Of a DNA stretch of 64,000 bases, positions 1-29,493 are shown one piece after another. How positions within the stretch are numbered: the first letter of the stretch is position 1; the number at the start of each line of letters is the position of its first letter. The stretch comes from an uncultured Spirochaetales bacterium (lineage in GTDB: Bacteria > UBP6 > UBA1177 > JAKLFG01): assembly GCA_964415795.1 (NCBI GenBank), contig CAYQBN010000001.1:212164-276163 (forward strand). The letters run 5' to 3'. A program made the position numbers and the translations under genes. The notes under the pieces were generated by a model that saw nothing but the letters and a program-made list of their open reading frames with translations, did no database searches and had not been told where the DNA came from.

Positions 1-215
1 GTGAGATAGGGACTGGTCCGACGCCAGTCGGCGAGGGTTCGTATCATCCCGCGGTCGAGCAGGCCGATGAACGCGGCATCGCCGATGTCGTTCTTGATGA
101 CGGTGTTGTCCCAGTCGAACACTGCCACTTTGCGGCCCGGACGCTTCGCCTCGGCGGTGAGAAAGGCGATAAGCGCCGCGTGGTTCTTCGGGTCCCATCC
201 GTCGGGGTTGAGCAT
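1..215 (-). CDS. HAD-superfamily hydrolase/phosphatase, 5' part only (runs off the window)
   Basis: Manual translation from ATG at 215 with a GGAGAGGAG RBS: MLNPDGWDPKNHAALIAFLTAEAKRPGRKVAVFDWDNTVIKNDIGD... contains HAD motif I DxDxT (FDWDNT). Not in the supplied ORF track. Confidence 0.75.
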   Translation of the reverse strand, partial: MLNPDGWDPKNHAALIAFLTAEAKRPGRKVAVFDWDNTVIKNDIGDAAFIGLLDRGMIRTLADWRRTSPYL

Positions 216-301
216 GGACTCCTCTCCTTTAATACGAGCCTGACAACACGGAGAGAATAGAAGGTTCTCGAGCTGATGGCAAATTCTTACGAAAAAGGAT
301 T

Positions 302-394
302 CTAGAACGACTCCCTCACGGTCTGACCCACCGAAACAAAAAAAACGATCAACAAAACCACTGCAGTTCCGATCGCCCCGAGCGCCACTTTCAT
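302..394 (-). CDS. Putative 30-aa single-pass membrane small protein (MKVALGAIGTAVVLLIVFFVSVGQTVRESF)
   Basis: ATG at 394 preceded by GGAGG (400-404), stop TAG at 302-304, hydrophobic run of about 18 residues, directly downstream of a Pho-box-like repeat. Confidence 0.6.
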   Translation of the reverse strand: MKVALGAIGTAVVLLIVFFVSVGQTVRESF

Positions 395-439
395 GATAAC
401 CTCCATTCACGAGCTACGATCCTATCATGGCTTCGTTAT

Positions 440-466
440 GTCAGGATACGGTAAAGGGCGGGTGAA
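440..466 (-). promoter_or_regulatory. Pho-box-like 11-bp direct repeats (TTCAC/TTTAC/CTGAC)
   Basis: Minus strand reads TTCACCCGCCC TTTACCGTATC CTGAC; oriented toward the small ORF and the HAD gene. Confidence 0.65.
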
Positions 467-487
467 ACGATCATGAAAACAGAAGTG

Positions 488-2128
488 TTACTTCTGTATC
501 TGGAAGGTGTCGATGAAGCCCATCGAGGCGCCGGTATCGCTGTTGAGTTCCACCGCCCGGAAGCTGAGGTGTGCGCCGTCGATGGTGACCGCAACATAGT
601 GAATCGCCGCCTTGGTCACCTTGACCTTGTCGGTCGTCTTCACATCGTAGAGAGTCGCACCGGCACCGGCGGTGACGATGTAGTTGACTCCATCGGCCTC
701 CGTCGGCTGCTTCACATCTCCCTTAAGCGGCACCGAGCGCTGGTAATAGTGGTCATGACCATTGAAAACCATTGTGACGCCATACTGATCGAAGACGGGT
801 GCCCATACCGCTTTGAGATCGCTGTTGAAACTGCCGCCGTGCGTAAGGTCGGTCGTTTCGCTGTAGATGGGGCGATGATGCGTGACGAAGCGCCACACGG
901 CATCGGGGAACCACTGGCTAAACACCTGATGCATGAACTGGGTTTGCTGGTCCTTGATAGAACCGTCCTTCATGAGGGCGCCGGTGCAGGCGGTGCCATA
1001 GGTGCCCCACAGCCCTGCGCCGTTCCAGCAATCGTTGATGTTGACGAACACCGCGTTACCGTAGCGGATAGCGAACCAGTGCTCATTGCCCGGCATCGCG
1101 AACTGGGCGAAATAGTTCACCGCCGACTGTTCATGATTTCCGACCACTGAGAGGATCGGCACGCTGCGCATCCATTCTTCGGCCTGCTCGAAGACATCGA
1201 ACCACTGACTCTGGGTGGTTCCTTCACTCACCCAGTCACCACCGAAACTAATGAACACCGGATCCTCGTTCTCGATCGCTGCCCTGATGGTCCGGGCGAG
1301 CCGGTCGGGGGCGCCGCGGCTGTCGCCCATCGCGACGAAGGTGAACGGCGGAGCCGGTTTGCGCGGATCGGGGGCCGTGCGGAAGTGCGATACCGGCGAG
1401 AGGTGATCAGGATCACCGACCCGATAGTAGTAGGTCGTCCCCGGCGTAAGTCCGCAGAGTTCGGCAACATGAACCGTTTTTCGGGCACTGTCGTAGGGAA
1501 GTACCCACGCCGCCCCTTCCATCGAACCGGTGTTGCTGGGGCCGGTCTCAACGCAATTCTGCGTCATTGCCTCGTCGGTGCAAGCTTTCGCGTAGGTCAT
1601 CTTTGTCATCGAGCCGGCCGAGGAATCGAGTGTGGTCCACGTAAAGGTCATCGAGATCGCCGGTTCGCTCTGCCACGAGAGGTGAACATAGCGCGGCGTC
1701 GGTGCGTCGCCGATCGTGGGGTCAGCAGGCATCGGGATGAGCGCGGCATTGCCCGTTTCACCCTGATTGGTGCCGCAGGTTGGGTCGATGATCGGCGGTT
1801 CTCCGCCATCGTCGGGCTGTTCGTTGTCCACCGGGGTTCCGTTGTCGGTCGGCGTCGTATCTGGCTGGGGTTCGGTATCGTTCGACTGAGTGCCATCGGT
1901 CGGTTGATTGTCGATCATCCCGCCGGTATCGGGCTGTTCGGTGTCGATCACTTGGCCACTGTCGGTCGGTGGAGTCGTGTCGGTCTGTTCAGCGGTGTCG
2001 GTCACGCCGGTGTGGTCGGAAGTACCGGCGGCATCGTTCTGTACATACTGCGAACTGTCCGAGACATCGCACGCAGCGGCCACAAGAGCCACTACACCAA
2101 CGAACAGCAAAAGGTACGGCATCTTCAT
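488..2128 (-). CDS. Purple acid phosphatase-like metallophosphoesterase lipoprotein with FN3-like domain and acidic Thr/Asp/Pro stalk
   Basis: Lipobox-like AAAC; motifs GDSRG, GGDWV, GNHE, THHRP, GHDH. Start moved to ATG 2128 (AAGGAGG RBS). Confidence 0.85.
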   Translation of the reverse strand: MKMPYLLLFVGVVALVAAACDVSDSSQYVQNDAAGTSDHTGVTDTAEQTDTTPPTDSGQVIDTEQPDTGGMIDNQPTDGTQSNDTEPQPDTTPTDNGTPVDNEQPDDGGEPPIIDPTCGTNQGETGNAALIPMPADPTIGDAPTPRYVHLSWQSEPAISMTFTWTTLDSSAGSMTKMTYAKACTDEAMTQNCVETGPSNTGSMEGAAWVLPYDSARKTVHVAELCGLTPGTTYYYRVGDPDHLSPVSHFRTAPDPRKPAPPFTFVAMGDSRGAPDRLARTIRAAIENEDPVFISFGGDWVSEGTTQSQWFDVFEQAEEWMRSVPILSVVGNHEQSAVNYFAQFAMPGNEHWFAIRYGNAVFVNINDCWNGAGLWGTYGTACTGALMKDGSIKDQQTQFMHQVFSQWFPDAVWRFVTHHRPIYSETTDLTHGGSFNSDLKAVWAPVFDQYGVTMVFNGHDHYYQRSVPLKGDVKQPTEADGVNYIVTAGAGATLYDVKTTDKVKVTKAAIHYVAVTIDGAHLSFRAVELNSDTGASMGFIDTFQIQK

Positions 2129-5915: not shown

Positions 5916-6818
5916 TTATGCCGCCCGAATCACCTGCGATGGCGATGAAACCTCGAATTTCGCACCGACTTGACCGTTCAACTTGTCCATGTCGAGCAGG
6001 GTGAGGAAATCGGCACAGCGGAAGTGACGGTCGATTATCGGTTCGCCGAGCACCGTGGCTCCTGCTTTAAGATAAGCCTTGAGAAGTGGCGGTATAAGAG
6101 CCTTGGCGTGTTCCTCGTCAATGCCACCGATCGAGGAGACGAAGCGATAGTAATCATCGAACTGACGAATACGGAATTTCCGGTTCGGCTGGGCGTGCAC
6201 GACACCATTTCCCGCATGATAGACTGAAAAATAACCGTGGAGCGCAACGAGATCATCCATGTCCATCGTCTTGATGCTCGAACAACCGAAGAGCCATTGC
6301 GCACCAGTATGTTTGGCATATTCGGCGATCCCCTTCCACAACAGAAGAATGGCGGCACCGGTGCGATGATCGGCATGGACGCAGGCGCGTCCCAACTCGA
6401 CCTTGACTCCCGGCAGTTGGAGTATCTCTCTGATGTTGAATTCGGTTGCCGTGTAGAAGTTGCGCGTGAACAGCGAACAGTTGAACCGGTACGTACCAAC
6501 GCAGGCACCGCTTTCCCGGTCTATGAGCATGAGGTGATCGCACTTGAGATCGAATCGGTCGAAGTCGAGTCCGAGCGGGTGACGGATGTGGAGCAGTTCC
6601 TCGTAGAACACCGCATGTCGGAGCAAGAGAACCTGCCGCAGATCATCGCCGTTCTCGGCCATCTTAACCGTGTAACGCTTATTTTCCAGCAAGAAGCGGA
6701 CATGCGGCCGGTAGCGGTCGAGTTGCGCATCGATGCGAGACACCACGAATTTGCGGGCGATCTGCCCGACGAGCGGCATCGAGAACGGGGCTTTCTTCAT
6801 CGTGAGCGTCGTGCTCAT
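5916..6818 (-). CDS. GNAT-fold N-acyltransferase, OlsB-like (ornithine/amino-lipid synthesis)
   Basis: LRHAVFYEEL, DRFDLKCDHL, VGTYR, ELGRACV, IPPLLKAYL..GA...GEP..D..F...D pattern typical of the OlsB/Acetyltransf_5 family. Confidence 0.75.
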   Translation of the reverse strand: MSTTLTMKKAPFSMPLVGQIARKFVVSRIDAQLDRYRPHVRFLLENKRYTVKMAENGDDLRQVLLLRHAVFYEELLHIRHPLGLDFDRFDLKCDHLMLIDRESGACVGTYRFNCSLFTRNFYTATEFNIREILQLPGVKVELGRACVHADHRTGAAILLLWKGIAEYAKHTGAQWLFGCSSIKTMDMDDLVALHGYFSVYHAGNGVVHAQPNRKFRIRQFDDYYRFVSSIGGIDEEHAKALIPPLLKAYLKAGATVLGEPIIDRHFRCADFLTLLDMDKLNGQVGAKFEVSSPSQVIRAA

Positions 6819-6879
6819 CAGACACCTCCATTTACCTTTCTATAACGGAGGAAACATCGTCCCTTCGTATTGTCGCATG

Positions 6880-6906
6880 ATGAAAGGCGTGTTGAAAAAC
6901 GGTGAA
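6880..6906 (-). promoter_or_regulatory. Pho-box-like 11-bp repeats (TTCAC/TCAAC/TTCAT)
   Basis: Minus strand TTCACCGTTTT TCAACACGCCT TTCAT upstream of the OlsB-like gene. Confidence 0.55.
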
Positions 6907-6916
6907 AAGTGAAGGA

Positions 6917-7618
6917 TCATCGTATCTTCACCGTCTCGTACCAGAGCGTTTCGGTGTCGAGAATGACCCCCTGAAAGCGCCCCATCGAGCAGGAGCCGCA
7001 GTTGAGGTAACGCTTCTTTTTATTGAGGTAATAGGTCTTGTGGTATTCGATCTTGTGGGTGTGTCCCAGTATCACCACATCGTACTTCCTCAAAAGGCCG
7101 AGCGCATAGTTAAGGTATCGGAACGAATTATACTTTCGCGGTATTCGATGGATCTCGTCATCGAACGCGATCGCCGCACGATAGAGTTTCTTGAACCACT
7201 TGAAGCGGCACATTGCCTTGATAAGCAGATACATCCACCGTCCGAACAGGCGCCCGATACGGGTGCCGTTCAAGAAATCGGCGTTGTGTCCATGTTCGAT
7301 GTAGATCGTTTGACCGCCCGCGTTACGAATGAGGAGATGGTCTTTGCCGAAATTGTTGAAGATATCGTGATTGCCCCGGATATAGATCGGCTTTTTCGAG
7401 TAGAGATAGGCGAGCAGTTCACGGTTGTGTTCGACTATCTCCGTAAAATCCCATTTGTAGAGTTCATAGATGTCGCCGTTGAGAACGATCATCTCCACCT
7501 TGTACTGCGCAATGACCGATTCCATCGTGGCAATGAACTCGGTAGGGTGCCAGCCGAAGATGTCCGATCCATCCTTCGGAACACCGAGGTGAAGGTCGGA
7601 GATGACCATGATTTGCAT
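6917..7618 (-). CDS. Calcineurin-like metallophosphoesterase, LpxH/PlcP-like
   Basis: ISDLHLG, NGDIYE, RGNHD, EHGH, LGHTH motifs. Likely start ATG 7618 (MQIMVISD), 1 nt after the upstream stop. Confidence 0.8.
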   Translation of the reverse strand: MQIMVISDLHLGVPKDGSDIFGWHPTEFIATMESVIAQYKVEMIVLNGDIYELYKWDFTEIVEHNRELLAYLYSKKPIYIRGNHDIFNNFGKDHLLIRNAGGQTIYIEHGHNADFLNGTRIGRLFGRWMYLLIKAMCRFKWFKKLYRAAIAFDDEIHRIPRKYNSFRYLNYALGLLRKYDVVILGHTHKIEYHKTYYLNKKKRYLNCGSCSMGRFQGVILDTETLWYETVKIR

Positions 7619-7619
7619 G

Positions 7620-8981
7620 CTACACTCCGAGGGGGCGTTCTCCGGGCGAAAACTTTCCCGTCGCGACGACCTCTTCGATGAAGTAGGTGCCCTTCTTGCG
7701 TCCCTTGAGAAAACCGTTCCACGCCGCTTCGGCAAGCCGTCCCTTCCGACGGAGATCAAAGAGCCACTCGTTACAGTACCGTGCTGGCCCGGGCATCTTG
7801 AAACCGGCCCCCATCTCGCGGACCCAGCGGCGGTTCTGTTTCTCGTGGTACCCGACCGGCTGAGAAAAGATGATGGGAATGCCGAGCGCGCAGTAGAACG
7901 ACAGTTCACTCGGTTTGGTCCAGAGAACATCGACTTCTCGAAGGACTCGGTTGAATGCGGCGAAGTACTCGTCGTAGCCGGCGCCCCAAACGATCCTGAC
8001 CGCATTGTCGAGTCGGTATACCCCCGTTTCGACGAGATAAGACTCGAACTGCCGCTTTACCGACCTACTGACGCCTGCTGAAAGAAGCAGCCGTACCTTG
8101 CCTCCTTCAATGAACGGAATGAGCGCAGTCAAGATGTCGCGCGTCATTGCCGCCTGCGTACCCGAACCGCCGACCGCAAAGAGAAGCGTCAAATGATCGC
8201 GCCGTCGGAGCGGTATCTCGCGATCTCCGAGAAAATGGCGCACCTCTCGCTCATGGAGAGGGAAAAAACGGTTGTCGGGATCGAGCCGGATCAGGCGCTC
8301 AAAGAGGTCGTCACGGAGGATCTCGAGATGCTCCTTGCTCCCCAAGCACTCTTTCGGAAGCGGAAATCCGGTGAGATGGATTCGTTCCTCGGGGACGCCA
8401 TAATTTTTAAGACGGCGTACCACATTGGCACACGGTGCACAGTAGTGAAGGGCGCTCCGCGCGGGGTCGCGCGGCACCCAGACACGATTGACGTCACTGT
8501 CGGTGACGAGCACGAAGGTCGGTTGCTCGCGGCTCCCAAGTGCATCCTGTGCGAGCGCCGTAGCAAAGAAGGTGTGGATCGAGGGGAGCGGTCGCTCCCT
8601 GATACGACGAATGAGGCTTGCACCAAGCCCCCGGAATCGGATGAGAAAATCAACATACCGGAGACCGATCGTTGGTCGCGATAGATCACGCGAGGGGTAG
8701 CGCGGTGGAATACGGAACAACCAATCGAGGAGAGCAAAAAGCCAAGGTCCGATGATCGGAACATCGAGTGCCCGTGAGAAAAGGTAGTAGAGCCGACGTG
8801 TCCGCCGCAACGCCCGGGCCTCGACGGTATCGGTTATCGTTTCGTCGCCATAGACGATCGTTTTTCCTTCCTCAGCGAGGTCACGGAGGGGGTAAGCGGC
8901 ACGAAGATGGCCGAGACCCATCTCGACCGAGATGACCCACGCCTTGGGAGAGGTATCAGTTTTCGTACTCGAGTCCGCCAT
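7620..8981 (-). CDS. GT-B fold glycosyltransferase-like protein resembling GT28 (MGDG synthase/UgtP-like)
   Basis: N-terminal MGLGHLRAA, VTD, TGFP, AVGGSG, LWTKPSEL and ALGIPII...HEKQN elements paralleling GT28 signatures. Start set at MADSS (8981). Confidence 0.55.
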   Translation of the reverse strand: MADSSTKTDTSPKAWVISVEMGLGHLRAAYPLRDLAEEGKTIVYGDETITDTVEARALRRTRRLYYLFSRALDVPIIGPWLFALLDWLFRIPPRYPSRDLSRPTIGLRYVDFLIRFRGLGASLIRRIRERPLPSIHTFFATALAQDALGSREQPTFVLVTDSDVNRVWVPRDPARSALHYCAPCANVVRRLKNYGVPEERIHLTGFPLPKECLGSKEHLEILRDDLFERLIRLDPDNRFFPLHEREVRHFLGDREIPLRRRDHLTLLFAVGGSGTQAAMTRDILTALIPFIEGGKVRLLLSAGVSRSVKRQFESYLVETGVYRLDNAVRIVWGAGYDEYFAAFNRVLREVDVLWTKPSELSFYCALGIPIIFSQPVGYHEKQNRRWVREMGAGFKMPGPARYCNEWLFDLRRKGRLAEAAWNGFLKGRKKGTYFIEEVVATGKFSPGERPLGV

Positions 8982-10128
8982 CGGGTACCAGAGCGATGAG
9001 AGAATCCTTTTCAACGGTAATGGTACGTCCGCGCCACCGGACACGGCGGGTCACAAAGGGAGAAAGGTAGATGATGAACGAAAGGATATCCTTGACCACC
9101 ACGACCATCGGAAAAACGAGCAGTGTCCGCCACGACGGCCGTTCGTTGGGCTGAGAGAGCGCGTTGATATATTCGAGCACCATCTTGACGACCGTCGCGG
9201 TCACCAAAAGGAGCATCCCGCTCTTGCCGAGAAAAGGCACAGACACCAGCGACCACACGATCGGGTGCATGAGCACTTCCGAGAGATACAGTTTCGGTTT
9301 TATCTGAAACCGCATCACCGCCCAGCGGCTCATCCGATCGTAGAAGGAACGGAGCGAACTGTCGCGGTTCACGTTCTCGGCGGGAGTGAAGTTGGTCGAG
9401 ACCCGGAGATTCTTCTTCCGGAAGAGAAGCCCCATCATGTAATCCTCGGCAAGATAAGGCTCAAAGGGACGAAACCCGCCGAAGTGTTTCTCGAGCGCTT
9501 CCCGCTCGATGAGCAGTGACTTGCCGATGACGATCGGTATGCGGAACAGGCGCCACGCGGCGATGAGATTGCCGGTGATGTAGTAGTTGAGATAGGCGTT
9601 CTCGACGAGTGCGCCGAAGGTGCGCGCGCCAGTCGCCGTGATAGGACAGAACACTAGTTTAGTGCCATTGAGAAGGTACTCCTCCACAAGACGCGAAAGC
9701 GTATCGGGAGACACCCTTACATTGGCATCAGCTATCCAGTAGAGGTCTCCCGTCGCGTGCCGTTCCATCTTGGCGAGGTTATCTACCTTCGGATTGAGCG
9801 GCTTATCGGTGCCGGTAACGAGGATGAGCGTGCGAATGTGCGGATACCGCACCGCGACTTCGCGGATGACCGGCACCGCCGGATCGTTCTCGGTCTCGAC
9901 GGCGAAGAGGACCTCGAAGTTCGGGTAATCGCTTCTGTAGAACGACTCGATGTTCTCGGCGAACGGGCCATCGGCGTTCTTCACCGGTTTGAGGATCGAC
10001 ACTCGCGGCAGACGGTCATCTTTCAACCGTTCCTTCTTTTCTAACGAGCGCACGCTACGCGGTCCCACCGCATAGAAAGAGAGAAGAACGAACGGCGCGA
10101 ACACTACGATCATCCAAAAAAGGAGCAT
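8956..10128 (-). CDS. Glycosyltransferase family 21 (ceramide glucosyltransferase/HpnI-like)
   Basis: N-terminal TM, VSILKPV, NPKVDNL, ADANV, GKSLLI, LAEDY, RMSRW, C-terminal TMs. Start ATG 10128 with GAGGAGG RBS. Confidence 0.8.
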   Translation of the reverse strand: MLLFWMIVVFAPFVLLSFYAVGPRSVRSLEKKERLKDDRLPRVSILKPVKNADGPFAENIESFYRSDYPNFEVLFAVETENDPAVPVIREVAVRYPHIRTLILVTGTDKPLNPKVDNLAKMERHATGDLYWIADANVRVSPDTLSRLVEEYLLNGTKLVFCPITATGARTFGALVENAYLNYYITGNLIAAWRLFRIPIVIGKSLLIEREALEKHFGGFRPFEPYLAEDYMMGLLFRKKNLRVSTNFTPAENVNRDSSLRSFYDRMSRWAVMRFQIKPKLYLSEVLMHPIVWSLVSVPFLGKSGMLLLVTATVVKMVLEYINALSQPNERPSWRTLLVFPMVVVVKDILSFIIYLSPFVTRRVRWRGRTITVEKDSLIALVPDGGLEYEN

Positions 10129-10169
10129 TGAAACCTCCTCATACCATTTCACATCACGCCGGATTCGCT

Positions 10170-17815: not shown

Positions 17816-17892
17816 AGTGTCCTCTCCTCGTTGTGTTATCAAAAACCCTCCGGCGCACCGGCGCCGGTCGGTGAGAGAAGTATGGCCGCTTT

Positions 17893-17919
17893 GTTAAGAA
17901 ACGGTGAAGGTAGTATGAG
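17893..17919 (-). promoter_or_regulatory. Pho-box-like repeats facing pstS (CTCAT/TTCAC/TTAAC)
   Basis: Minus strand CTCATACTACC TTCACCGTTTC TTAAC, 11-bp period. Confidence 0.7.
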
Positions 17920-17952
17920 AATACGGCAAACAAAGAACGAATTGTCGGCCAA

Positions 17953-17979
17953 TTAACGGTTTGCTAACCGTTCGTTAAC
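17953..17979 (+). promoter_or_regulatory. Pho-box-like repeats facing pstC (TTAAC/CTAAC/TTAAC)
   Basis: TTAACGGTTTG CTAACCGTTCG TTAAC, 11-bp period. Confidence 0.75.
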
Positions 17980-18028
17980 AATCGGCGCCTACTCTGCGAG
18001 TAGTGTTGAAAGAGGAGCATACGGAACC

Positions 18029-20633: not shown

Positions 20634-21305
20634 ATGCCGATGCGTATCCAGCGCGACATCGCAAAACTCAAGACACGGCTCCTCGAGATGGGGCTCAAGA
20701 TAGAGGAGACCTTCGCCCGGGCCGTCCAGTGCGTCCGGGACCGCAACACCCAAATGGCCAGCGCCATCGTCGCAGGAGACCGAGAGATAGACCTCGCCGA
20801 GGTGGACCTCGAGGAGGAGTGCCTCAAGACGCTCGCCCTCAACCAGCCGGTCGCGGGAGATCTGCGGCTCATCGTGACGGTGCTCAAGATAAACAACGAC
20901 CTCGAGCGGATCGGCGATCTCGTCGTCAACATGGCCGAACGGGTCATTACCCTCGCCGCCCATCCCGAGGTGGAACTTCCTTTTGATTTCAGCCGGATGG
21001 CCCACACGGCGCACCTCATGCTCCACGCCTCGATCGAGGCACTCGTGAACCTCGACAAGAGCCGCGCCTACGAAGTTCTTGCCCGCGACGAGGAAATAGA
21101 TACCATGCACCGAGAGATGTACCAGCGGGCGGGGCAGATGTTGCGCGAACGACCGGGACAGGCGGAGATCCTTCTCCATGGCATCGCTCTCTCGCGTTAC
21201 CTCGAACGGATCGCCGACCATGCGACCAACATCGCCGAGGATGTCATCTACCTCGTGGACGGCGAGATCGTGCGGCACCAGGTAAAAGAGGCACCGCATC
21301 AATGA
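20634..21305 (+). CDS. phoU: Phosphate signalling complex protein
   Basis: EEECLKTLALNQPVAGDLR, DLERIGD, YLERIADHATNIAE. Confidence 0.95.
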   Translation: MPMRIQRDIAKLKTRLLEMGLKIEETFARAVQCVRDRNTQMASAIVAGDREIDLAEVDLEEECLKTLALNQPVAGDLRLIVTVLKINNDLERIGDLVVNMAERVITLAAHPEVELPFDFSRMAHTAHLMLHASIEALVNLDKSRAYEVLARDEEIDTMHREMYQRAGQMLRERPGQAEILLHGIALSRYLERIADHATNIAEDVIYLVDGEIVRHQVKEAPHQ

Positions 21306-23056
21306 CCCGAAAACTTTTCTGGAGGCTTTTCTTCTTTCTCACCCTTGCCGCAGGAACCGCGCTCATTCTTTCGGCGATCGTCTCGTGGCGTCTCTTTGAC
21401 CGCTTCACCCGCGAGCAGACCGTCACCGAACTCAAAGAGTCTCTCGTCACCCTCGAGCGGGTGCTTCGCATCGAGGAGGCATACGGTCACGGCGCCTCAT
21501 TCGGCGAAACGGTACGCGACCTCGGGACGCGGCTTGGCATCCGCTTTACCGTCGTCGCTCCCGACGGAGCGGTGCTCGCCGATTCGGAAGAAGATCCATC
21601 GCATATGGCCAATCATGGCGACCGCCCCGAGATCCGCGACGCGCTCGGCGGGATCGTCGGCGTCGCCGCGCGCTACAGCCCTACTCTCAAAACTGAACAA
21701 CTCTATGTTGCCCTTCGGGTCCGCGATGGTGCCGAGACCCGCTTTGTGATACGCGCCTCCAAGACGATTTCGTCGCTTCGAGAAAGCATGCGTCCGCTCA
21801 CCGCCGACCTTCTCTTCGTCACCGTCCTTATTCTCTGCGGCATCTTCGGCATGAGTGTTCTCATCGCCCGCGCCATCAGCAGGCCGATAACGACGCTCCA
21901 GACCGGAGCCGAGCGCTTCGCGGCCGGAGATCTCAGCAGTCGCCTCCCCATACCTGAAACCGAAGAATTCGCGCGGCTCGCCCGGTCGCTCAACACCATG
22001 GCCTCAGAACTCGAGACACGAATCTCCGAGATCACGGCACAGAAGAACGAACTTGAGGCGATCCTCTCGAGCCTCGACGAAGCGCTGGTCCTCGTAGATG
22101 AAAACGAGCAGGTGCTCCGCGTCAACGCCGCCGCCGGCAGGCTCTTTCACACCACTCCTGCGGAGGCCGCCGGCAAGCCGCTCGTCGGGGTGCTCGCCAA
22201 CAAGGCGCTCTACGAGTTCGCCCGGGAGGTCATCACGGCACGGGAGACCCTCGAGCGGGAGATAGACCTCTACGACAGCGAAGGAAAGATGCTCTACGCG
22301 CACGGCGTGCCGGTGGCCAACCGCCCGTGCATATTGCTCGTTTTCACCGACATCACCCGCCTCAAGAAACTCGAGAACATCCGCAAGGAGTTCGTCGCTA
22401 ATGTCTCGCACGAACTGCGCACCCCCATCACCGCGATAAAGGGCTATGTCGAAACCCTCCGCGACGGCGCGCTCGACGATCCGGCGGCGGCGCGCAACTT
22501 CCTCGACATCATCGCGCGCCAGAGCAACCGGCTCGGCGCCATCATCGAAGACCTGCTCGCCCTCTCGAAGATAGAGCGCGACGCCGAACACGGAGAGATC
22601 GTCAAAACGACCTCTCCGGTGAAGCCGGTTCTTCTCGCGGTGGCGCAGACCTTCGCCGAACGAGCCGCAAAGAAGCATATAACCATTGAAGTTCACTGCG
22701 AAGATTCACTCTCCGCCTCCCTCAACGCACCGCTCATCGAGCAGGCGGTCGGCAACCTCGTTGACAACGCCGTCACCTACTCGCACGACGACGGCATCAT
22801 CACCATTGCCGCCCGTGAAGAAGGAAACGACATCGTGATAAGTGTCACCGACACCGGCATCGGCATCGCATCGGAACACCTGCCGCGCCTGTTCGAGCGC
22901 TTCTACCGCGTGGACAAGGCACGGAGCCGTGCCGTCGGCGGAACTGGCCTCGGACTCGCCATCGTCAAGCACATCGTGCTCGCCCACAAAGGCGCCGTAT
23001 CGGTAAAAAGCGAACTGGGGAAAGGCTCGACATTCTCGATACGCCTGCCGCGGTGA
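21302..23056 (+). CDS. phoR: Sensor histidine kinase (HAMP, PAS, HisKA, HATPase)
   Basis: EFVANVSHELRTP, NLVDNA, DTGIGI, FERFYRVDKARSRAVGGTGLGLAIVKH. Confidence 0.9.
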   Translation: MTRKLFWRLFFFLTLAAGTALILSAIVSWRLFDRFTREQTVTELKESLVTLERVLRIEEAYGHGASFGETVRDLGTRLGIRFTVVAPDGAVLADSEEDPSHMANHGDRPEIRDALGGIVGVAARYSPTLKTEQLYVALRVRDGAETRFVIRASKTISSLRESMRPLTADLLFVTVLILCGIFGMSVLIARAISRPITTLQTGAERFAAGDLSSRLPIPETEEFARLARSLNTMASELETRISEITAQKNELEAILSSLDEALVLVDENEQVLRVNAAAGRLFHTTPAEAAGKPLVGVLANKALYEFAREVITARETLEREIDLYDSEGKMLYAHGVPVANRPCILLVFTDITRLKKLENIRKEFVANVSHELRTPITAIKGYVETLRDGALDDPAAARNFLDIIARQSNRLGAIIEDLLALSKIERDAEHGEIVKTTSPVKPVLLAVAQTFAERAAKKHITIEVHCEDSLSASLNAPLIEQAVGNLVDNAVTYSHDDGIITIAAREEGNDIVISVTDTGIGIASEHLPRLFERFYRVDKARSRAVGGTGLGLAIVKHIVLAHKGAVSVKSELGKGSTFSIRLPR

Positions 23057-23120: not shown

Positions 23121-23149
23121 TTGACATATGATTTTGAATATGTTATTAC
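23121..23149 (+). promoter_or_regulatory. Sigma70-like promoter TTGACA-N17-TATTAC with TG extension and AT-rich upstream region
   Basis: Sits at the abrupt AT-rich left edge of the RM island. Confidence 0.6.
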
Positions 23150-23175
23150 ATAGTCTACTTACTATTGAGGTTGTG

Positions 23176-23754
23176 ATGTTTCTCACATTGGACAAGGTAG
23201 CAGAGATAAGAATCGGCTATCAACCGCGCTCCTCCCTCCGGGGAGATACGAGTGGAACCCACCGCTTGGTTTTTGGTAAAAACATCTCTCCAGATGGCAA
23301 ATTGGAGGGTCCTTTTCTCCAGATTGTTCCCGATCGGAAAGCGAATCTCTATGAGGTGCGTCCAAGAGATATCCTTTTCCTTGCGCGCGGGACCGAGCAT
23401 AAGGCCATTTGCATTGATTCCGAGATTGCCCCGAACCTGCTTGCTTCTTCCAACTTCTACATCGTCAGAGTAAAAACGCCGACCGTATTACCGTGCTTTC
23501 TCGCATGGTACATGAACCAAAAACCGGCGCGTGAACATTACGAGATACATGCTGCCGGGGCAACCATTTCCTATATTTCCAAACCGGCCCTCGCCGCGTT
23601 GCCGATTCCGGTCATCCCGATTGAAAAACAACAAGCCATCGTAAAGATTGCTCAGTTACGGGATGAGGAGCGAGTCATCGAACAACACCTGTCGCGGTTG
23701 CGCGATCGCCTCGTCGACAAGCAATGTTTAAAAGCACTTGAACAAGGGAGATAG
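23176..23754 (+). CDS. Half-size HsdS-like protein (single TRD plus helical arm)
   Basis: L..VAEIRIG, GDILF-like RDILFLARG, GATISYISK..LAALPIPVIPIEKQQAIV. ATG 23176 with GAGG RBS. Confidence 0.7.
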   Translation: MFLTLDKVAEIRIGYQPRSSLRGDTSGTHRLVFGKNISPDGKLEGPFLQIVPDRKANLYEVRPRDILFLARGTEHKAICIDSEIAPNLLASSNFYIVRVKTPTVLPCFLAWYMNQKPAREHYEIHAAGATISYISKPALAALPIPVIPIEKQQAIVKIAQLRDEERVIEQHLSRLRDRLVDKQCLKALEQGR

Positions 23755-23756
23755 CA

Positions 23757-25283
23757 ATGAACGGCGCTGAGTACCAAAAGAAGATCAATGACACCGTATG
23801 GCGGGCCTGTGACACCTTTCGAGGTGCGGTCGATCCAGCCGAGTATAAGAACTACATCCTCACCATGCTTTTCATAAAATACATGAGCGATCTGTGGAAA
23901 GACCGTCGTGAAGAGTACGCCAAGAAATATGACGGCGACACGGAACGCATCGAGCGGGCACTTTCCCGGGAACGCTTTGTCGTACCGAACGAGAGCAACT
24001 TTGATTATTTGTATGCTCACCGGGATGCTCCGAATATCGGCGAACTGATAAACATTGCTCTAGAAAAAATCGAAGAAACCAATAAGGCAAAACTTGAAAA
24101 TGTATTTCGAAATGTTGATTTCAACAGTGAAGCGGCTCTAGGGCAAACCAAAGAGCGGAACCGTCGTCTCAAGAACCTTCTCGAAGATTTCAAGGCCCTC
24201 GATCTTCGGCCATCGCACCTTGGCAACCGCGACATCATCGGCGATGCCTACGAATATCTCATTGCGCAGTTCGCGGCAGGCGCTGGCAAGAAAGCGGGAG
24301 AGTTTTACACCCCGCCGGAGGTCTCGACGCTACTCGCCAAACTCGTTGACCCAAAACCGGGCGCCCGCATCTGCGACCCTGCGTGCGGCTCCGGATCGCT
24401 CCTGATCAAGGTGGCGAAAGAGGTCTCCGACAAAAACTTCGCCCTCTTCGGGCAGGAATCGAACGGTTCGACATGGTCACTGTGTCGCATGAACATGTTC
24501 CTGCACGAAATGGACTCGGCCCGCATCGAGTGGGGAGATACGCTGAACAACCCGAAGTTGATAGAAAACGACGAACTCATGCGTTTTGATGTGGTTGTCG
24601 CCAATCCTCCCTTTTCGCTCGAAAAATGGGGGCACGAAAATGCGTCGCACGACCGGTTCAAACGCTTTTGGCGCGGGGTGCCGCCCAAAAGCCGGGGCGA
24701 CTATGCCTTTATCAGCCACATGGTCGAGGTGGCGTTGGCAGGAATCGGCAAGGTCGGCGTCATCGTGCCGCACGGTGTCTTGTTCAGGGGCAGCGCCGAG
24801 GGGACGATCCGGCGAAAATTCATCGAAGAGAACATCCTTGAGGCGGTCATCGGTTTGCCGGAACAACTCTTTTATGGGACCGGTATCCCGACGGCGATCC
24901 TTATTTTCAACAAAGGCCGCAAACCGCGTGACCTCGCGACGACGAAGCGCGACAAGCATATCCTGTTCATCGATGCGAGTCGCGAGTACGAAGACGGCAA
25001 AAAACAGAATCGCCTGCGGCCACAAGATATCGAGAAAATAGTGACCACCTTCCGCGAGTTCAAGGAGATACCGAAGTACTCGCACCTAGCGTCATTCGAC
25101 GAAATCGAAGAGGCGGAGTACAACCTGAACATCCCGCGCTATGTAGATACCTTCGAAGAAGAACCCGATGTGGACATCCCGGTGGTACAAGCCGAAATAA
25201 AGCGCCTCGAGACGGAACTTGCCAAGACACGCGAAGAAATGGACGGGTATCTGAAGGAACTTGGGCTTTATGAAAATCGTTGA
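23757..25283 (+). CDS. hsdM: Type I RM DNA methyltransferase subunit
   Basis: GEFYTPPEV, DPACGSGSLL, VANPPFS, PHGVLFRG, YNLNIPRYV. Confidence 0.97.
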   Translation: MNGAEYQKKINDTVWRACDTFRGAVDPAEYKNYILTMLFIKYMSDLWKDRREEYAKKYDGDTERIERALSRERFVVPNESNFDYLYAHRDAPNIGELINIALEKIEETNKAKLENVFRNVDFNSEAALGQTKERNRRLKNLLEDFKALDLRPSHLGNRDIIGDAYEYLIAQFAAGAGKKAGEFYTPPEVSTLLAKLVDPKPGARICDPACGSGSLLIKVAKEVSDKNFALFGQESNGSTWSLCRMNMFLHEMDSARIEWGDTLNNPKLIENDELMRFDVVVANPPFSLEKWGHENASHDRFKRFWRGVPPKSRGDYAFISHMVEVALAGIGKVGVIVPHGVLFRGSAEGTIRRKFIEENILEAVIGLPEQLFYGTGIPTAILIFNKGRKPRDLATTKRDKHILFIDASREYEDGKKQNRLRPQDIEKIVTTFREFKEIPKYSHLASFDEIEEAEYNLNIPRYVDTFEEEPDVDIPVVQAEIKRLETELAKTREEMDGYLKELGLYENR

Positions 25284-25359
25284 AATACAATAGGTTTGTG
25301 AATACAACAGAAAAATAATTGGCAGATATTATCAATTATTCTTGACAACGGAGGTGGAA

Positions 25360-25695
25360 GTGGATATCCTCTATAGGAATAAGGGGCTAGAAAAGGCATG
25401 TACGGAACAAAAAGAGGCTGTGAAACGGTATGGACCGAACAACCAGAAAAAATTGTTTCAGAGGCTCAGCGAAATTGATGCGGCTGACAACCTCGAGATT
25501 CTCTGCAAAATCCCCGCTGCTCGCTGTCATCCGCTTACGGGCAATCTCAAGGGCCTGTGGGCCGTTGATCTGGTGCATCCGTTTCGTTTGTTGTTCCGCT
25601 TAGTAAAATCTGATGGTACCGATATCGAGGAGGAGGAGATCATTCCGGCATTGGTAGTTGCCGTGATGATTTGGGATATAAAGGACTACCATTAG
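25360..25695 (+). CDS. higB: HigB/RelE-like toxin (plasmid-maintenance killer type)
   Basis: RCHPLTGNLKGLWAVDLVHPFRLLF, C-terminal IKDYH. GTG 25360 with GGAGG RBS. Confidence 0.8.
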   Translation: MDILYRNKGLEKACTEQKEAVKRYGPNNQKKLFQRLSEIDAADNLEILCKIPAARCHPLTGNLKGLWAVDLVHPFRLLFRLVKSDGTDIEEEEIIPALVVAVMIWDIKDYH

Positions 25696-25704
25696 GGGAG
25701 AAAC

Positions 25705-26793
25705 ATGGGCAGAAGAAGTTATCAGCCCGACGATGCGATCGGACCGGGCGCCACGATCCTTGAGACCATAGAGGCGATCAACCTCTCGCAAAAGGAATTG
25801 GCGCTCCGCATGGGGCGCGATGAGGCAACAATCAACAAACTGATCAAAAACGCGCTCGGCATTACTCAGGATACTGCCATTCAGTTGGAAAATGTTCTCG
25901 GCATTCCGGCCTCGTTCTGGATGAATTTGGACCGGAACTATCGAGAGAATCTTGCCCGCATAGAAGAACAGAAGCGACTGGAAGAGGAACGAGCCGTTCT
26001 GGAGCAGTTTTCCTACAATCCTTACCGCGACTTGGTGAACCTCGGCTGGGTTGAATCTTTCAAAGACCCGCAGGATCAAGTAAAAGCACTCTTACGGTTC
26101 TTCGGTGTTCATTCGTTCAGATCCTTGCAGGATGTAGTTTCGGTTGCGTTCAGAAAGGACAAGAAAAAAGAGTGTGAACCGCTCGCCATCGCAGCATGGT
26201 TAAGAAAGGGTGAGTTGTACGGTCGCGAAATCAGGACAGCCCCGTATGATAAGGCCCGATTGACGAATACACTGCCGGAACTGAAAAAACTTTCAAGAGA
26301 AGAACCGGAGGTGTACTCTAAAAAGATTCAAGAACTGTGCGCCGCTTGTGGCGTTGCGGTAGTGTATCTACCACACTTGCCGAAAACCTATGTGAATGGC
26401 GCGACAAAGTGGTTAACGCCGGAACGGGCGCTTATTCTCCTGACGCTGAGAGGAAGGAAAGACGACATTTTCTGGTTCAGCCTTTTCCATGAAATCGGAC
26501 ATGTACTGAAGCATAGCAAGAAGGAAACCTTTGTCTCCTTCGAGAAATGTGTTGAGAAAGACGATTACGAGAAAGAGGCGGATCGTTTCGCAGCCGAGAC
26601 ATTGATTCCTTCCGTTTTGCTTCGATCTTTTGCCAAAAGAGGTGTTTTTACGGCAGAGGCCATAAAGACCTTTGCGAAAAGGGCCGAGGTTGCGCCGTCG
26701 ATAGTGGTCGGGCGGTTGATGCATGAGAAAAAGATTCCGTTCAATAGTCCTTTGAACTCGTTACGAACTACGCTAGAATGGCGTGAAGAATGA
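25705..26793 (+). CDS. higA: HigA-type HTH antitoxin fused to an ImmA/IrrE-like Zn metallopeptidase
   Basis: PGATILE...SQKELALRMG...FWMNL HTH; FHEIGH and EKEADRFA. Confidence 0.85.
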   Translation: MGRRSYQPDDAIGPGATILETIEAINLSQKELALRMGRDEATINKLIKNALGITQDTAIQLENVLGIPASFWMNLDRNYRENLARIEEQKRLEEERAVLEQFSYNPYRDLVNLGWVESFKDPQDQVKALLRFFGVHSFRSLQDVVSVAFRKDKKKECEPLAIAAWLRKGELYGREIRTAPYDKARLTNTLPELKKLSREEPEVYSKKIQELCAACGVAVVYLPHLPKTYVNGATKWLTPERALILLTLRGRKDDIFWFSLFHEIGHVLKHSKKETFVSFEKCVEKDDYEKEADRFAAETLIPSVLLRSFAKRGVFTAEAIKTFAKRAEVAPSIVVGRLMHEKKIPFNSPLNSLRTTLEWREE

Positions 26794-26826
26794 CTTTTGA
26801 TTCTGACGAACCGATTATTTTAGCAA

Positions 26827-26868
26827 ACCCGCCGGGCGCTGGCGAAAGCCAAGCTCACTTCGGCGGGT
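26827..26868 (+). other. Structured intergenic element: outer stem ACCCGCCG/CGGCGGGT enclosing a GCTGGC-GAAA-GCCAAGC stem-loop
   Basis: Base pairing read directly; GNRA-type tetraloop. Function unknown (terminator or ncRNA). Confidence 0.55.
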
Positions 26869-26900
26869 GTCTCATTAATATCAAGATGTTACGGTTGCGA

Positions 26901-26956
26901 TAGACTATGATGGATTATGAGGTGCTATGAGGTGTTATGAGATGCTATGAGATGCA
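26901..26956. repeat. 10-bp tandem repeat, five full units plus a partial (TAGACTATGA, TGGATTATGA, GGTGCTATGA, GGTGTTATGA, GATGCTATGA, GATGCA)
   Basis: Seen directly; abuts the hsdS RBS. Confidence 0.9.
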
Positions 26957-26968
26957 AGGAGTGATCGC

Positions 26969-28273
26969 ATGAGCATACGCAACGAGAACCGGCCGGGATA
27001 CAAGAAAACGAAAGTCGGCTGGATACCGGAGGAGTGGGAGGTAAGAAAATTATCGGATTTGTGCCGGTATCCTGAGTCCGGCTTTAGCGCAAACAACACT
27101 GATAATAGCGTCGCTCCTCATTCAGAATTCAAAGGTGTTTTGAAACTAAGTTGCATTTCGGACGGAAAATTTAACCCTCTTGAGAATAAAGAGGTTATCC
27201 CAGAAGATAGTGAAAAGTTATTTGCCCCAGTAAAGAGAAACACCATCATCATAAGCAGATCAAATACCGCAGAACTTGTGGGGGCTGTCTGTTTCGTAAG
27301 AGAGGATATTCCCAATTTGTTTTTATCAGATTTGCTATGGTCAATTTCTCCCAAGAATGAAAAAGCAACCAACATGGAATGGCTGGCGATATTGTTACAA
27401 CTAAAGAGGTTTCGTCAGGAAATCATGGCGAGGTCTCATGGTACCAGCGGCAGTATGAAAAAACTGACAAAAGATGAGTTTTTAGGAATAACTATTCCCT
27501 ACCCTCCCTTCCCCGAACAACGCCGCATCGCAACCATCCTCTCTACATGGGACCGCGCGATCGATCAGGTACGGGCGCTCATCGAGGCGAAAAAGAAACT
27601 CAAGAAAGGGCTGATGCAACAACTCCTCACCGGCCGGATGCGCTTCCCCGAATTCGGCAAACCGGCCAAACAAGGCCAACTGCCGGAAGGGTGGAGGCAA
27701 GTTAAGATAGGCGACCTACTAAAAGAAACAAGTCGGCCGGTGGATTTTAACGACAACGATTTTTACCCGCTCATAAGTGTTCGACGCAACTCTGGCGGTG
27801 CGTTTTATCGCCAAACACTTAAGGGCTCGGACATCGCAACAAAAAATCTCTTCGTCACAAAACAGGGCGATTTTCTGATCTCAAAGATGCAGGTGCTGCA
27901 CGGCGCGATGGCCGTGACTCCTAGCGAATTTGACGGAATGCATATTTCGGGAAGCTACATAGCTCTTGTTCCCAAAAACAAAGAAGACCTCTCTATTGAG
28001 TATTTCAACTACCTCGCTCAGACACCGAAGATGTACCACAAGGCATATATCTCAAGCCATGGTGTGCATATAGAAAAAATGACCTTCGACCTCGATCTGT
28101 TTCTTAACGAGAAGATAGTTGTTCCTACAAAAAGAGAGCAGGAGAAAATCGTTCATGTCATTAGGAGCATAGAGCAAATAGTAGGTCTGCTTGATGCAGG
28201 CGTTGAGCATTTCAAGCAACAGAAAAAAGGACTCATGCAGAAGTTGTTGACCGGTGAGATACGGGTGAAATGA
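26969..28273 (+). CDS. hsdS: Type I RM specificity subunit (two TRDs)
   Basis: GWIPEEW, PEQRRIATILS...KKGLMQQLLTG repeated as EQEKIV...KKGLMQKLLTG. Confidence 0.95.
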   Translation: MSIRNENRPGYKKTKVGWIPEEWEVRKLSDLCRYPESGFSANNTDNSVAPHSEFKGVLKLSCISDGKFNPLENKEVIPEDSEKLFAPVKRNTIIISRSNTAELVGAVCFVREDIPNLFLSDLLWSISPKNEKATNMEWLAILLQLKRFRQEIMARSHGTSGSMKKLTKDEFLGITIPYPPFPEQRRIATILSTWDRAIDQVRALIEAKKKLKKGLMQQLLTGRMRFPEFGKPAKQGQLPEGWRQVKIGDLLKETSRPVDFNDNDFYPLISVRRNSGGAFYRQTLKGSDIATKNLFVTKQGDFLISKMQVLHGAMAVTPSEFDGMHISGSYIALVPKNKEDLSIEYFNYLAQTPKMYHKAYISSHGVHIEKMTFDLDLFLNEKIVVPTKREQEKIVHVIRSIEQIVGLLDAGVEHFKQQKKGLMQKLLTGEIRVK

Positions 28274-29493
28274 ACAACTCTTGGGTTAATGTTTTCGTTG
28301 ATGAATCTGGTACCAACGAACTGGATTCCACAAAACAAGGGGTTTCCAACCTTTTCATTTGTGTGGCTGTCGTCGTGGACGATGAACACATGGATGAGGT
28401 AACGACAGCGATCAATGATATCCGCAAGAAGCTTTGTAGCGGTGCCGAAATAAAGAGCAGCAGAATAGCTTCGAACCATGACAGAAGGCTCCAATTTTTA
28501 AGAGGAATAGAGAAGCTTCCTTTCAGATATTATGCCTTGGTGATTAACAAAGATGCTGTATACAGCGATTCCGGCTATCAATATAAACGCACTTTTTATA
28601 AAGCAGTACATCGGCGCCTCTATAACTTAGTCTCTTCTAGCGGAAAAAGTCTGCGAGTAAAAGCGGATGAAATCGGCGGGCAAGATTATATGGAAGGGTT
28701 CGATGATTACTTGAAGGACAAAGATTATCCCAACCTATTTACTCAGTTTGAGCATTCATTTGTGAAAAGCGAGAATGAGCCCGTTATACAGTTGGCTGAC
28801 TTGATTGCTGGAACATTGGGATATTGTTTTGATGAAACAAAAAAATCCGAGAAAGCGACAGAGTTCCGGAAAATATTAAGAAAATTAGAGGTTGCGGTTG
28901 ATTGTTGGCCTCCTTTGCCCATGGAGGTGGGCAAATCGGCAGGCAATCAATGGGACGAGAAAATACGAGAAGCGGCAAGAAGAAGGGCGATCTCTTTCAT
29001 TGAAGAAAATGAGAATTCATCAGAGATAGATGAACAAATACAAGCGGCAACACTTAAAAGACTCTTTTTTGCCAGAGAGTTCGAGGATAGGGAAGATCAA
29101 ACCATTTTTTCTGATAGTCTGATCGCTTCGTTGGAAAACGAGGGCTTCGGGAAAATATCGAAACAGGCATTCACTTCGCGCATCATTGGAAAACTGCGAT
29201 TTGAAGGAGTCGTTATTTCGGGCTCCAAGGACGGATATAGACTGGCGCTTTCTCATGAAGACATTCACGAATACCTCTGCCATGATAAAACCATAATAGA
29301 GCCGATGCTCGCCAGAATCGGAAGAGCGCGCCAAGCCGTTCAAGAAGCAACAGAAATGAAACTCGATATTCTGGCCGAAGAACCATATCTTGTTTTGGGA
29401 AAGATATTGGAGGCGGCCAAAGACTATGATCTTGACAACAGTACCAAGCGTTTGTGCGATGAAGAAGAGGACGAAACGGAGGAGAAAATATGA
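28270..29493 (+). CDS. DUF3800-family protein (RNase H-like fold) with C-terminal extension
   Basis: VFVDESG, IKSS, IQLADLIAG motifs; ATGA overlaps with both hsdS and hsdR. Confidence 0.8.
   Translation: MNNSWVNVFVDESGTNELDSTKQGVSNLFICVAVVVDDEHMDEVTTAINDIRKKLCSGAEIKSSRIASNHDRRLQFLRGIEKLPFRYYALVINKDAVYSDSGYQYKRTFYKAVHRRLYNLVSSSGKSLRVKADEIGGQDYMEGFDDYLKDKDYPNLFTQFEHSFVKSENEPVIQLADLIAGTLGYCFDETKKSEKATEFRKILRKLEVAVDCWPPLPMEVGKSAGNQWDEKIREAARRRAISFIEENENSSEIDEQIQAATLKRLFFAREFEDREDQTIFSDSLIASLENEGFGKISKQAFTSRIIGKLRFEGVVISGSKDGYRLALSHEDIHEYLCHDKTIIEPMLARIGRARQAVQEATEMKLDILAEEPYLVLGKILEAAKDYDLDNSTKRLCDEEEDETEEKI

Follow-up and report, generated by a model that had tools for sequence, protein, structure and literature searches.

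A conserved small single-pass membrane protein gene with a Pho-box-like promoter in an uncultured diderm lineage

The window, by which we mean the whole 64,000-nucleotide stretch of DNA analysed here, is largely a phosphate-starvation island. Near its first position it carries a small open reading frame (sORF) on the minus strand, between a cluster of phosphatase genes and a gene that is cut by the window edge. The features of this region are as follows, all on the minus strand.

1..216: downstream gene, N-terminal 72 aa only, cut by the window edge, with its own GGAGAGGAG and a HAD motif I-like FDWDNT
302..394: sORF coding sequence, 30 codons plus TAG (stop at 304-302); product MKVALGAIGTAVVLLIVFFVSVGQTVRESF, with one transmembrane helix
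404-400: Shine-Dalgarno sequence GGAGG, with a 5-nt spacer TTATC (399-395) before the ATG at 394-392
424..429: candidate -10-like hexamer CATGAT, 9 nt past the last repeat unit, placed by sequence comparison
439..477: four-hexamer array in exact 11-nt phase (TTCATG 477-472, TTCACC 466-461, TTTACC 455-450, CTGACA 444-439)
479..497: 8-bp hairpin ACAGAAGU-AAC-ACUUCUGU followed by UUUU, straddling the phosphatase stop at 490-488 with the TAA in its loop
488..2128: purple-acid-phosphatase-type metallophosphoesterase lipoprotein, 546 aa (Pfam Metallophos and Pur_ac_phosph_N; lipobox LVAAC)
3648-2143: porin-like protein, 501 aa, with no Pfam or NCBIfam match
5823-3658: type I phosphodiesterase/nucleotide pyrophosphatase
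5916-6818: OlsB-like ornithine-lipid N-acyltransferase, with TTCACCGTTTTTCAACA in front, at 6906
6917 to about 7620: second metallophosphoesterase
7620-9044: DUF6938/glycosyltransferase-like protein
8956-10152: family-21 glycosyltransferase

The genes from 5916 to 10152 (minus strand) form a block of the kind that remodels membrane lipids when phosphate is limiting, and this block adjoins the phosphatases. Farther along, at 16.8-23 kb, lie pstS, a divergent pstC-pstA-pstB-phoU and a HAMP-PAS histidine kinase; the identities of pstS, pstCAB, phoU and the phoR-like kinase were confirmed by Pfam. The kinase, encoded past phoU at 21302-23056 (plus strand), has HAMP and PAS domains and a weak periplasmic single-Cache-like match (E 6e-6, just under the Pfam cut-off); E. 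coli PhoR is not known to have a sensor domain in the periplasm. No response-regulator gene adjoins the phoR-like kinase, and the DNA directly past it (23128-32687, plus strand) encodes a type I restriction-modification system in the order hsdS fragment, hsdM, full hsdS, an inserted DUF3800 gene and hsdR.

The original prediction described a 30-aa membrane peptide behind GGAGG-N5-ATG. All of its sequence statements are correct, down to the exact translation, and its placement of the sORF holds for the sequence, to which we add that the gene lies on the minus strand, a point left unsaid there. The list of open reading frames also offers an alternative 34-aa form that begins at an in-frame ATG at 406-404, overlapping the Shine-Dalgarno sequence; as this ATG has no Shine-Dalgarno sequence of its own and is missing from both of the orthologues described below, the 30-aa form is the real one. 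The peptide has K2 as its sole N-terminal charge, reaches a hydropathy maximum of 2.64 (19-residue) and is modelled by AlphaFold2 as one helix spanning residues 2-29 with a pLDDT of 92. This helix is long enough to span a bilayer, and it is followed by a short, net-acidic, Phe-terminated tail of 5-6 residues. Among the 19 open reading frames of 25-45 aa that start with ATG behind a Shine-Dalgarno-like site on either strand of the 64-kb window, the sORF is the only strongly hydrophobic one.

Two other lineages carry an orthologue at the same place. A search with the phosphatase as query led to a relative at 81% identity in a genome bin (locus L001), in which a 31-codon open reading frame, MKMTLNTLGTIAIMMLVFFVAVGQTIGDELF, follows GGGAGG-N5-ATG directly past the phosphatase stop. 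A degenerate DNA pattern found the second, MKMTLNSLGTVAIMLVVFFVAIGQTIGDELF (31 aa), on a metagenome contig (L089), again directly past the phosphatase orthologue. The sORF therefore directly follows the purple-acid-phosphatase orthologue in all three lineages, the phosphatases being 80-81% identical, and its Shine-Dalgarno sequence, ATG and stop are kept in each, with a single indel of 3 nt (one codon). The Shine-Dalgarno site reads GGGAGG in both L001 and L089, while the spacer bases vary (TTATC, TCGTT and TCACC). The original prediction had called the protein unannotated, a description that does not hold for the relative, whose 31-aa orthologue is a called gene in ENA/NCBI records.

Similar to the peptide of the window, those of the relatives are strongly hydrophobic, the three having GRAVY values of 1.3-1.5, no more than one Arg and no cysteine. 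The N-terminus carries a charge of +1, and the tail a charge of 0 in the window and -2 in the relatives. Thirteen positions are invariant, namely M1, K2, L5, G9, T10, V17, F18, F19, V20, G23, Q24, T25 and the C-terminal F; the interior of the helix is hydrophobic yet variable, and small or polar residues are kept at two levels (G9-T10 and G23-Q24-T25). At 47% identity the peptide evolves much faster than the porin (86%) or the phosphatase (81%). Between L001 and L089 nucleotide identity is 85-90% from the repeats through the sORF stop, and it is lower on both flanks.

The substitutions that separate these sequences are of a coding type. Differences between the window and L001 fall on codon positions 1, 2 and 3 in the proportions 14/4/14, a pattern that, read from this alignment, is the signature of hydrophobic residues interchanging, and the codons of the invariant residues V17, F18, F19, G23, Q24, T25, T10 and K2 show third-position differences. 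A conservation check with dN/dS had been proposed for the sORF, and the syntenic copies in the two other lineages give values of 0.27-0.42, with 0.11-0.13 for the adjacent phosphatase at a dS of about 1, bearing in mind that the sORF statistics are drawn from three sequences of which two are close to each other. When equal numbers of nucleotide changes were placed at random, the mean BLOSUM62 score was 35-42 (sd 11), compared with 86-90 observed (P<=5e-5, at most 1 in 20,000 trials). One may postulate that the sORF has no function of its own and is either a chance reading frame within a conserved promoter or untranslated region, or a signal-peptide remnant of a gene that was lost through rearrangement. 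Synteny does break exactly at the sORF stop codon, the peptide resembles the n- and h-regions of a signal peptide, and two other frames are also stop-free over the same interval. The stop position, Shine-Dalgarno sequence and ATG nevertheless persist across lineages whose flanking genes have a dS of about 1, the substitution pattern is specific to the sORF frame and no other frame of the interval contains a start codon; we consider a functionless sORF highly improbable. The claim that this is a genuine conserved single-pass membrane small protein is thus borne out by orthologues in place and by coding-type substitutions, and on this comparative evidence the sORF is a real, conserved gene for such a protein, its translation being predicted.

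A further possibility is that the conserved entity is an RNA, either a small RNA or a structured 5′ region, with the reading frame incidental or sharing the sequence with it. In keeping with this, only 5 of the 23 codons that specify the same residue differ between L001 and L089, compared with about 40% in the adjacent phosphatase gene. This excess of synonymous conservation stands out when the whole gene is taken as baseline but is not significant with a local baseline (P about 0.06, estimated from counts), and we rejected it as a signal. The region shows neither covariation nor an Rfam match, and the copy in the window has diverged freely at synonymous and conservative sites, such that an RNA-level or dual-function element appears very unlikely.

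The peptide family has a narrow distribution in the data that we searched. Among 1.84 billion representative proteins, a profile search recovered no sequence other than the L089 peptide, and a degenerate DNA pattern run against JGI metagenome contigs likewise recovered only L089 (one real match of 18). The same core pattern run against 185,579 species genomes identified only L001 (1 of 11 matches), as did a first degenerate pattern (VFFVxVGQT) on genome contigs, where it was the one real match of 21. An HMM of the three peptides, applied to all six-frame open reading frames of 103 loci and the window, gave no paralogues and no further orthologues; a homologue search with two of the sORF peptides concatenated found nothing; and comparison of the peptide with Pfam, NCBIfam, PHROGs and PDB sequences produced noise only and no family. 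No hydrophobic sORF lies downstream of the phosphatase in relatives at 46-57% identity, and in those at about 55% identity the porin-phosphatase pair is retained, with an ankyrin-repeat or unassigned gene directly after it. By these searches the sORF family is confined to three sampled uncultured lineages, and it is a new family, albeit of a known kind, the small membrane proteins.

The array upstream of the sORF was the second element of the original prediction, which placed a Pho box about 45 bp from the gene. The array ends at 439-440, 44-45 nt before the sORF ATG, and its core, TATCCTGACA (448-439), is identical in all three lineages. The layout recurs in front of pstS and pstC, the phosphodiesterase-porin-phosphatase operon (hereafter the phosphodiesterase operon), the OlsB-like gene and a Porin_5 gene. 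Arrays in the window end 44-73 nt before likely start codons, and hexamers resembling xATxxT lie at a comparable distance past other arrays, reading CATGAT at the phosphodiesterase operon, CATACT at pstS and TACTCT at pstC. The divergent pstS (minus strand) and pstC-pstA-pstB-phoU-phoR-like kinase (plus strand) units share a 90-nt control region (17892-17980) that contains back-to-back phased hexamer arrays, one per direction.

We scanned the whole window for at least three of four hexamers of the form [CT]T[ACT]A[CT][ACG] in 11-nt phase and obtained eight overlapping matches where 0.07 were expected in random sequence of the same composition, although this contrast is partly circular because the hexamer definition had been widened after the pst sites were seen. 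All matches fall at four loci, namely the sORF, the phosphodiesterase operon, pstS and pstC, and all are intergenic and correctly oriented. A regular expression based solely on the repeat units at the three sORF loci had six matches in the window, one of which is the pstS promoter, and a matrix built without the sORF site assigned that site 13.1 bits, which ranks it about tenth in the window. Of the four arrays in the window, that of the sORF is the weakest (three of four units; 13 bits), and in L001 and L089 only two of its four units fit the relaxed consensus, the other two carrying G at position 3. The porin-phosphatase operon of L001 is also preceded by such an array. The predicted Pho box has the right architecture, and its identity, judged from the sequence, is well supported; as the same array stands before the pst genes and the phosphatase operon, induction of the sORF by phosphate starvation is a well-founded inference.

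This type of Pho box resembles that of Bacillus subtilis, in which four TT(A/T/C)ACA-like hexamers recur every 11 bp (PMC11870197). The array of the window matches it in the number of hexamers (four), their exact 11-nt phase, the TTnACn core and a position immediately before a -10-like hexamer, and it too stands before core pst genes of its genome; the PhoP of Streptomyces, with 11-nt direct repeat units, has a related architecture (PMC2275107). The two boxes differ in that the hexamers of the window have C-rich ends (TTCACC, TTTACC) rather than ACA and a fourth unit reading CTGACA, and in that the host is an uncultured diderm whose window contains no response regulator gene, binding being only predicted. 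A Sumerlaeota contig (L004, 809-858, plus strand) has a regular array, TTAACA-caatc-CTAACA-caatc-TTCACG-agggc-TTTACT, about 3 kb upstream of a phosphatase homologue, and on the strength of this array the Pho-box type seems to be widespread beyond Firmicutes. In the present genome the B. subtilis-type Pho box would mark the Pho regulon and could guide annotation of the remaining sequence.

The conserved block around the sORF is porin, purple acid phosphatase, Pho box and sORF. Beyond the sORF stop codon the window and L001 are no longer similar, which indicates that the sORF travels with the phosphatase and its promoter rather than with the downstream gene. In L001 and L089 that gene encodes a PhoD-family lipoprotein and not the HAD-like protein of the window, whose 72-aa fragment had no match confirming the HAD family in Pfam, NCBIfam, PDB or a homologue search. 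The original prediction had tied the peptide to the HAD enzyme, and this tie is not supported, as synteny with the relatives ends before that gene. In the relative (L094, 2970-7091) three further phosphatase genes lie in a row past the sORF, encoding a PhoD lipoprotein, then a metallophosphoesterase, then another purple-acid-phosphatase-like protein. The porin-like protein (1342-2868 in L001) is 86% identical between lineages and is always paired with the purple-acid-phosphatase lipoprotein, including in the 55%-identity relatives L098-L102; it may represent an undescribed family of phosphate or organophosphate porins.

The hairpin at 479-497 folds with z = -2.87, none of 200 shuffles folding as well, and looks like a terminator that separates the upstream operon from the sORF unit; L001 has a hairpin at the same place with another sequence (ATCAAG/CTTGAT). 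Downstream, the spacer between the sORF and the next gene is 85 nt in the window, and such gaps range overall from 59 to 85 nt. The sORF-phoD spacer of L001 contains neither a promoter-like nor a terminator-like site, and that of L089 contains no promoter-like site and one weak terminator-like match (1232-1215) that is within chance expectation. Given the lack of promoter-like sites in both spacers, phoD, a classical Pho gene, would most simply be transcribed from the sORF promoter. In the window a sigma-70-like TTGCCA-17-TATTCT lies at 282-254 (minus strand), between the sORF and the HAD-like gene, and co-transcription of these two genes is therefore uncertain; this is the only sigma-70-like match in the first 2.4 kb, where 0.9 would be expected by chance. 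A candidate terminator past the sORF in the window was rejected (z = 0.24).

This arrangement raises an alternative scenario in which the sORF is a leader or upstream reading frame, such that expression of the downstream phosphatase gene is set by translation of the sORF as such rather than by the peptide, by way of mRNA stabilisation, anti-termination or ribosome delivery. Such a role would accord with the position of the sORF as first cistron behind the sole Pho-box-like element upstream of phoD in L001 and L089, and with a GC-rich hairpin, of differing sequence, that lies past the sORF stop in both relatives. Selection on the amino-acid sequence of the sORF argues against it, however, as does the retention of the peptide in lineages that have different downstream genes. 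Direct translational coupling is ruled out by the gaps of 59-85 nt, the region has no conserved RNA structure (RNAalifold covariation term 0.01) and no Rfam match, and the spacers show no significant fold (z = -0.15 to -1.3). We regard a leader function as unlikely.

One explanation for our observed results, and one that we hold to be probable though by no means secure, is that the sORF encodes a Pho-induced small inner-membrane modulator or accessory protein, made as the first cistron of a phosphatase operon. Under this proposal, a response regulator of the PhoB/PhoP type would bind the four 11-nt-phased TTnACn hexamers, which are sited where a -35 element would be, and would thereby activate the promoter that drives the sORF. 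The peptide would then be made under phosphate starvation along with the secreted phosphatases, the porin, the Pst transporter and the lipid-remodelling genes, from a unit that would begin with the sORF and extend into the phosphatase-type gene that follows (phoD in the relatives, the HAD-like gene here). By the positive-inside rule the 30-31-residue inner-membrane helix would be oriented N-in/C-out, an orientation that we infer from a weak charge bias. That small and polar residues are conserved in a hydrophobic helix that elsewhere varies freely suggests helix-helix docking, and the G9-T10, G23-Q24-T25 and C-terminal acidic-x-Phe elements might dock the peptide onto a larger membrane protein, which it could then modulate or stabilise in the manner of other stress-induced small membrane proteins.

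Any partner for the peptide is speculative, and PhoR and Pst, which the original prediction proposed, are no better indicated by our results than other membrane proteins. If it is a feedback or connector modulator of a kinase, its C-out tail could reach the periplasmic Cache-like domain of the PhoR-like kinase; if it is an accessory, it could be a membrane helper that the lipoprotein phosphatases always encoded alongside it need in order to be exported or to function. A more far-reaching proposal is that the sORF represents an undescribed small-membrane-protein family in one uncultured diderm clade that serves as a dedicated component of the phosphate-starvation response, whether as kinase modulator or as lipoprotein-phosphatase accessory; this we advance only tentatively, as a rather doubtful prospect.

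A small hydrophobic peptide under stress-type control could also be a membrane-perturbing or type-I-toxin-like product induced by stress. TisB-type peptides are of similar size and have a single hydrophobic helix and a stress-type promoter, and the sORF peptide would resemble TisB in these respects. Against such a role, the opposite strand carries no promoter-like site in our scan, the tail of the sORF peptide is acidic and not basic, the gene is embedded among phosphatase genes with which it is probably co-transcribed, and the peptide matches no PHROG family; a toxin-like role would be surprising to find here and has a very low probability. Peptide-level selection, together with the absence of conserved RNA structure, weakens all four of the competing explanations considered above.

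The reading as a Pho-induced modulator or accessory protein is of limited impact at present given that the family is confined to three sampled lineages and the organism is uncultured. Within this scope, the sORF is a clean, computationally validated case from an uncultured lineage with a defined promoter type and operon position, and its invariant residues (G9 T10, V17-F-F-V20, G23-Q-T25 and the C-terminal F) provide positions that could be mutated.

Several known small membrane proteins can be set beside the sORF peptide. In B. subtilis, TatAd is encoded beside phoD and is induced by phosphate starvation, and the sORF likewise encodes a small membrane protein with an N-terminal helix that lies beside phoD in the relatives under phosphate-starvation-type control. 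TatA proteins are about 60-70 aa long and have a hinge and an amphipathic helix, whereas the sORF peptide ends right past its transmembrane helix and has no Pfam match, and the PhoD protein in the relatives carries a lipoprotein signal that lacks a twin arginine. MgrB, a 47-aa inhibitor of PhoQ, is comparable as a small membrane protein from a regulon on which it could feed back. It acts through a periplasmic region with conserved cysteines; the sORF peptide, by contrast, has no cysteine, a tail of 5-6 residues and no Pfam match.

Small proteins of the DUF1127 type are of interest with regard to their target: DUF1127 proteins and YjiS act on phosphate signalling via PhoR binding (PMC12501420), and DUF1127 proteins bind membrane-localized PhoR (PMC12648545). 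These proteins are arginine-rich, 47-54 aa long and defined by the DUF1127 domain, whereas the sORF peptide is a bare transmembrane helix with no DUF1127 match. KdpF, a 29-aa subunit that stabilises KdpABC (PMC12648545), is closer in form, as it is also about 30 aa with one helix, is also the first small cistron of a stress-induced operon and also has an acidic-x-Phe end (...AEAF in KdpF; ...RESF or ...DELF in the sORF peptides). The peptide nonetheless had no Pfam or NCBIfam match to KdpF and no BLASTP alignment with its sequence, no kdp genes are adjacent, and the sORF is followed by secreted or soluble phosphatases and not by a membrane pump. MgrB and KdpF, the analogues named in the original prediction, have no sequence or defining features in common with the sORF peptide.

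By analogy, the best functional precedent would be YoaI of E. coli, a 34-aa transmembrane protein that is induced by PhoB and that binds and activates the sensor kinase EnvZ through a cytoplasmic Glu (PMC11429745). The resemblance is not one of sequence, as BLASTP gave no alignment at E<=100 between the sORF peptide and YoaI, the YoaI sequence used agreeing with the invariant S26, V27 and E31 of the paper. The S-V...E spacing differs, the window having S21 V22 ... E28 and the relatives A21; the tail of YoaI is cytoplasmic, whereas the charge bias suggests that the tail of the sORF peptide is outside; and YoaI stands alone in Gammaproteobacteria rather than as the first cistron of a phosphatase cluster. 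What the two have in common is that both are small single-pass inner-membrane proteins in which polar or acidic residues are conserved in the tail and towards the C-terminus of the helix. Transcription of YoaI is under the phosphate two-component system, and the Pho-box-like array may point to similar control of the sORF.
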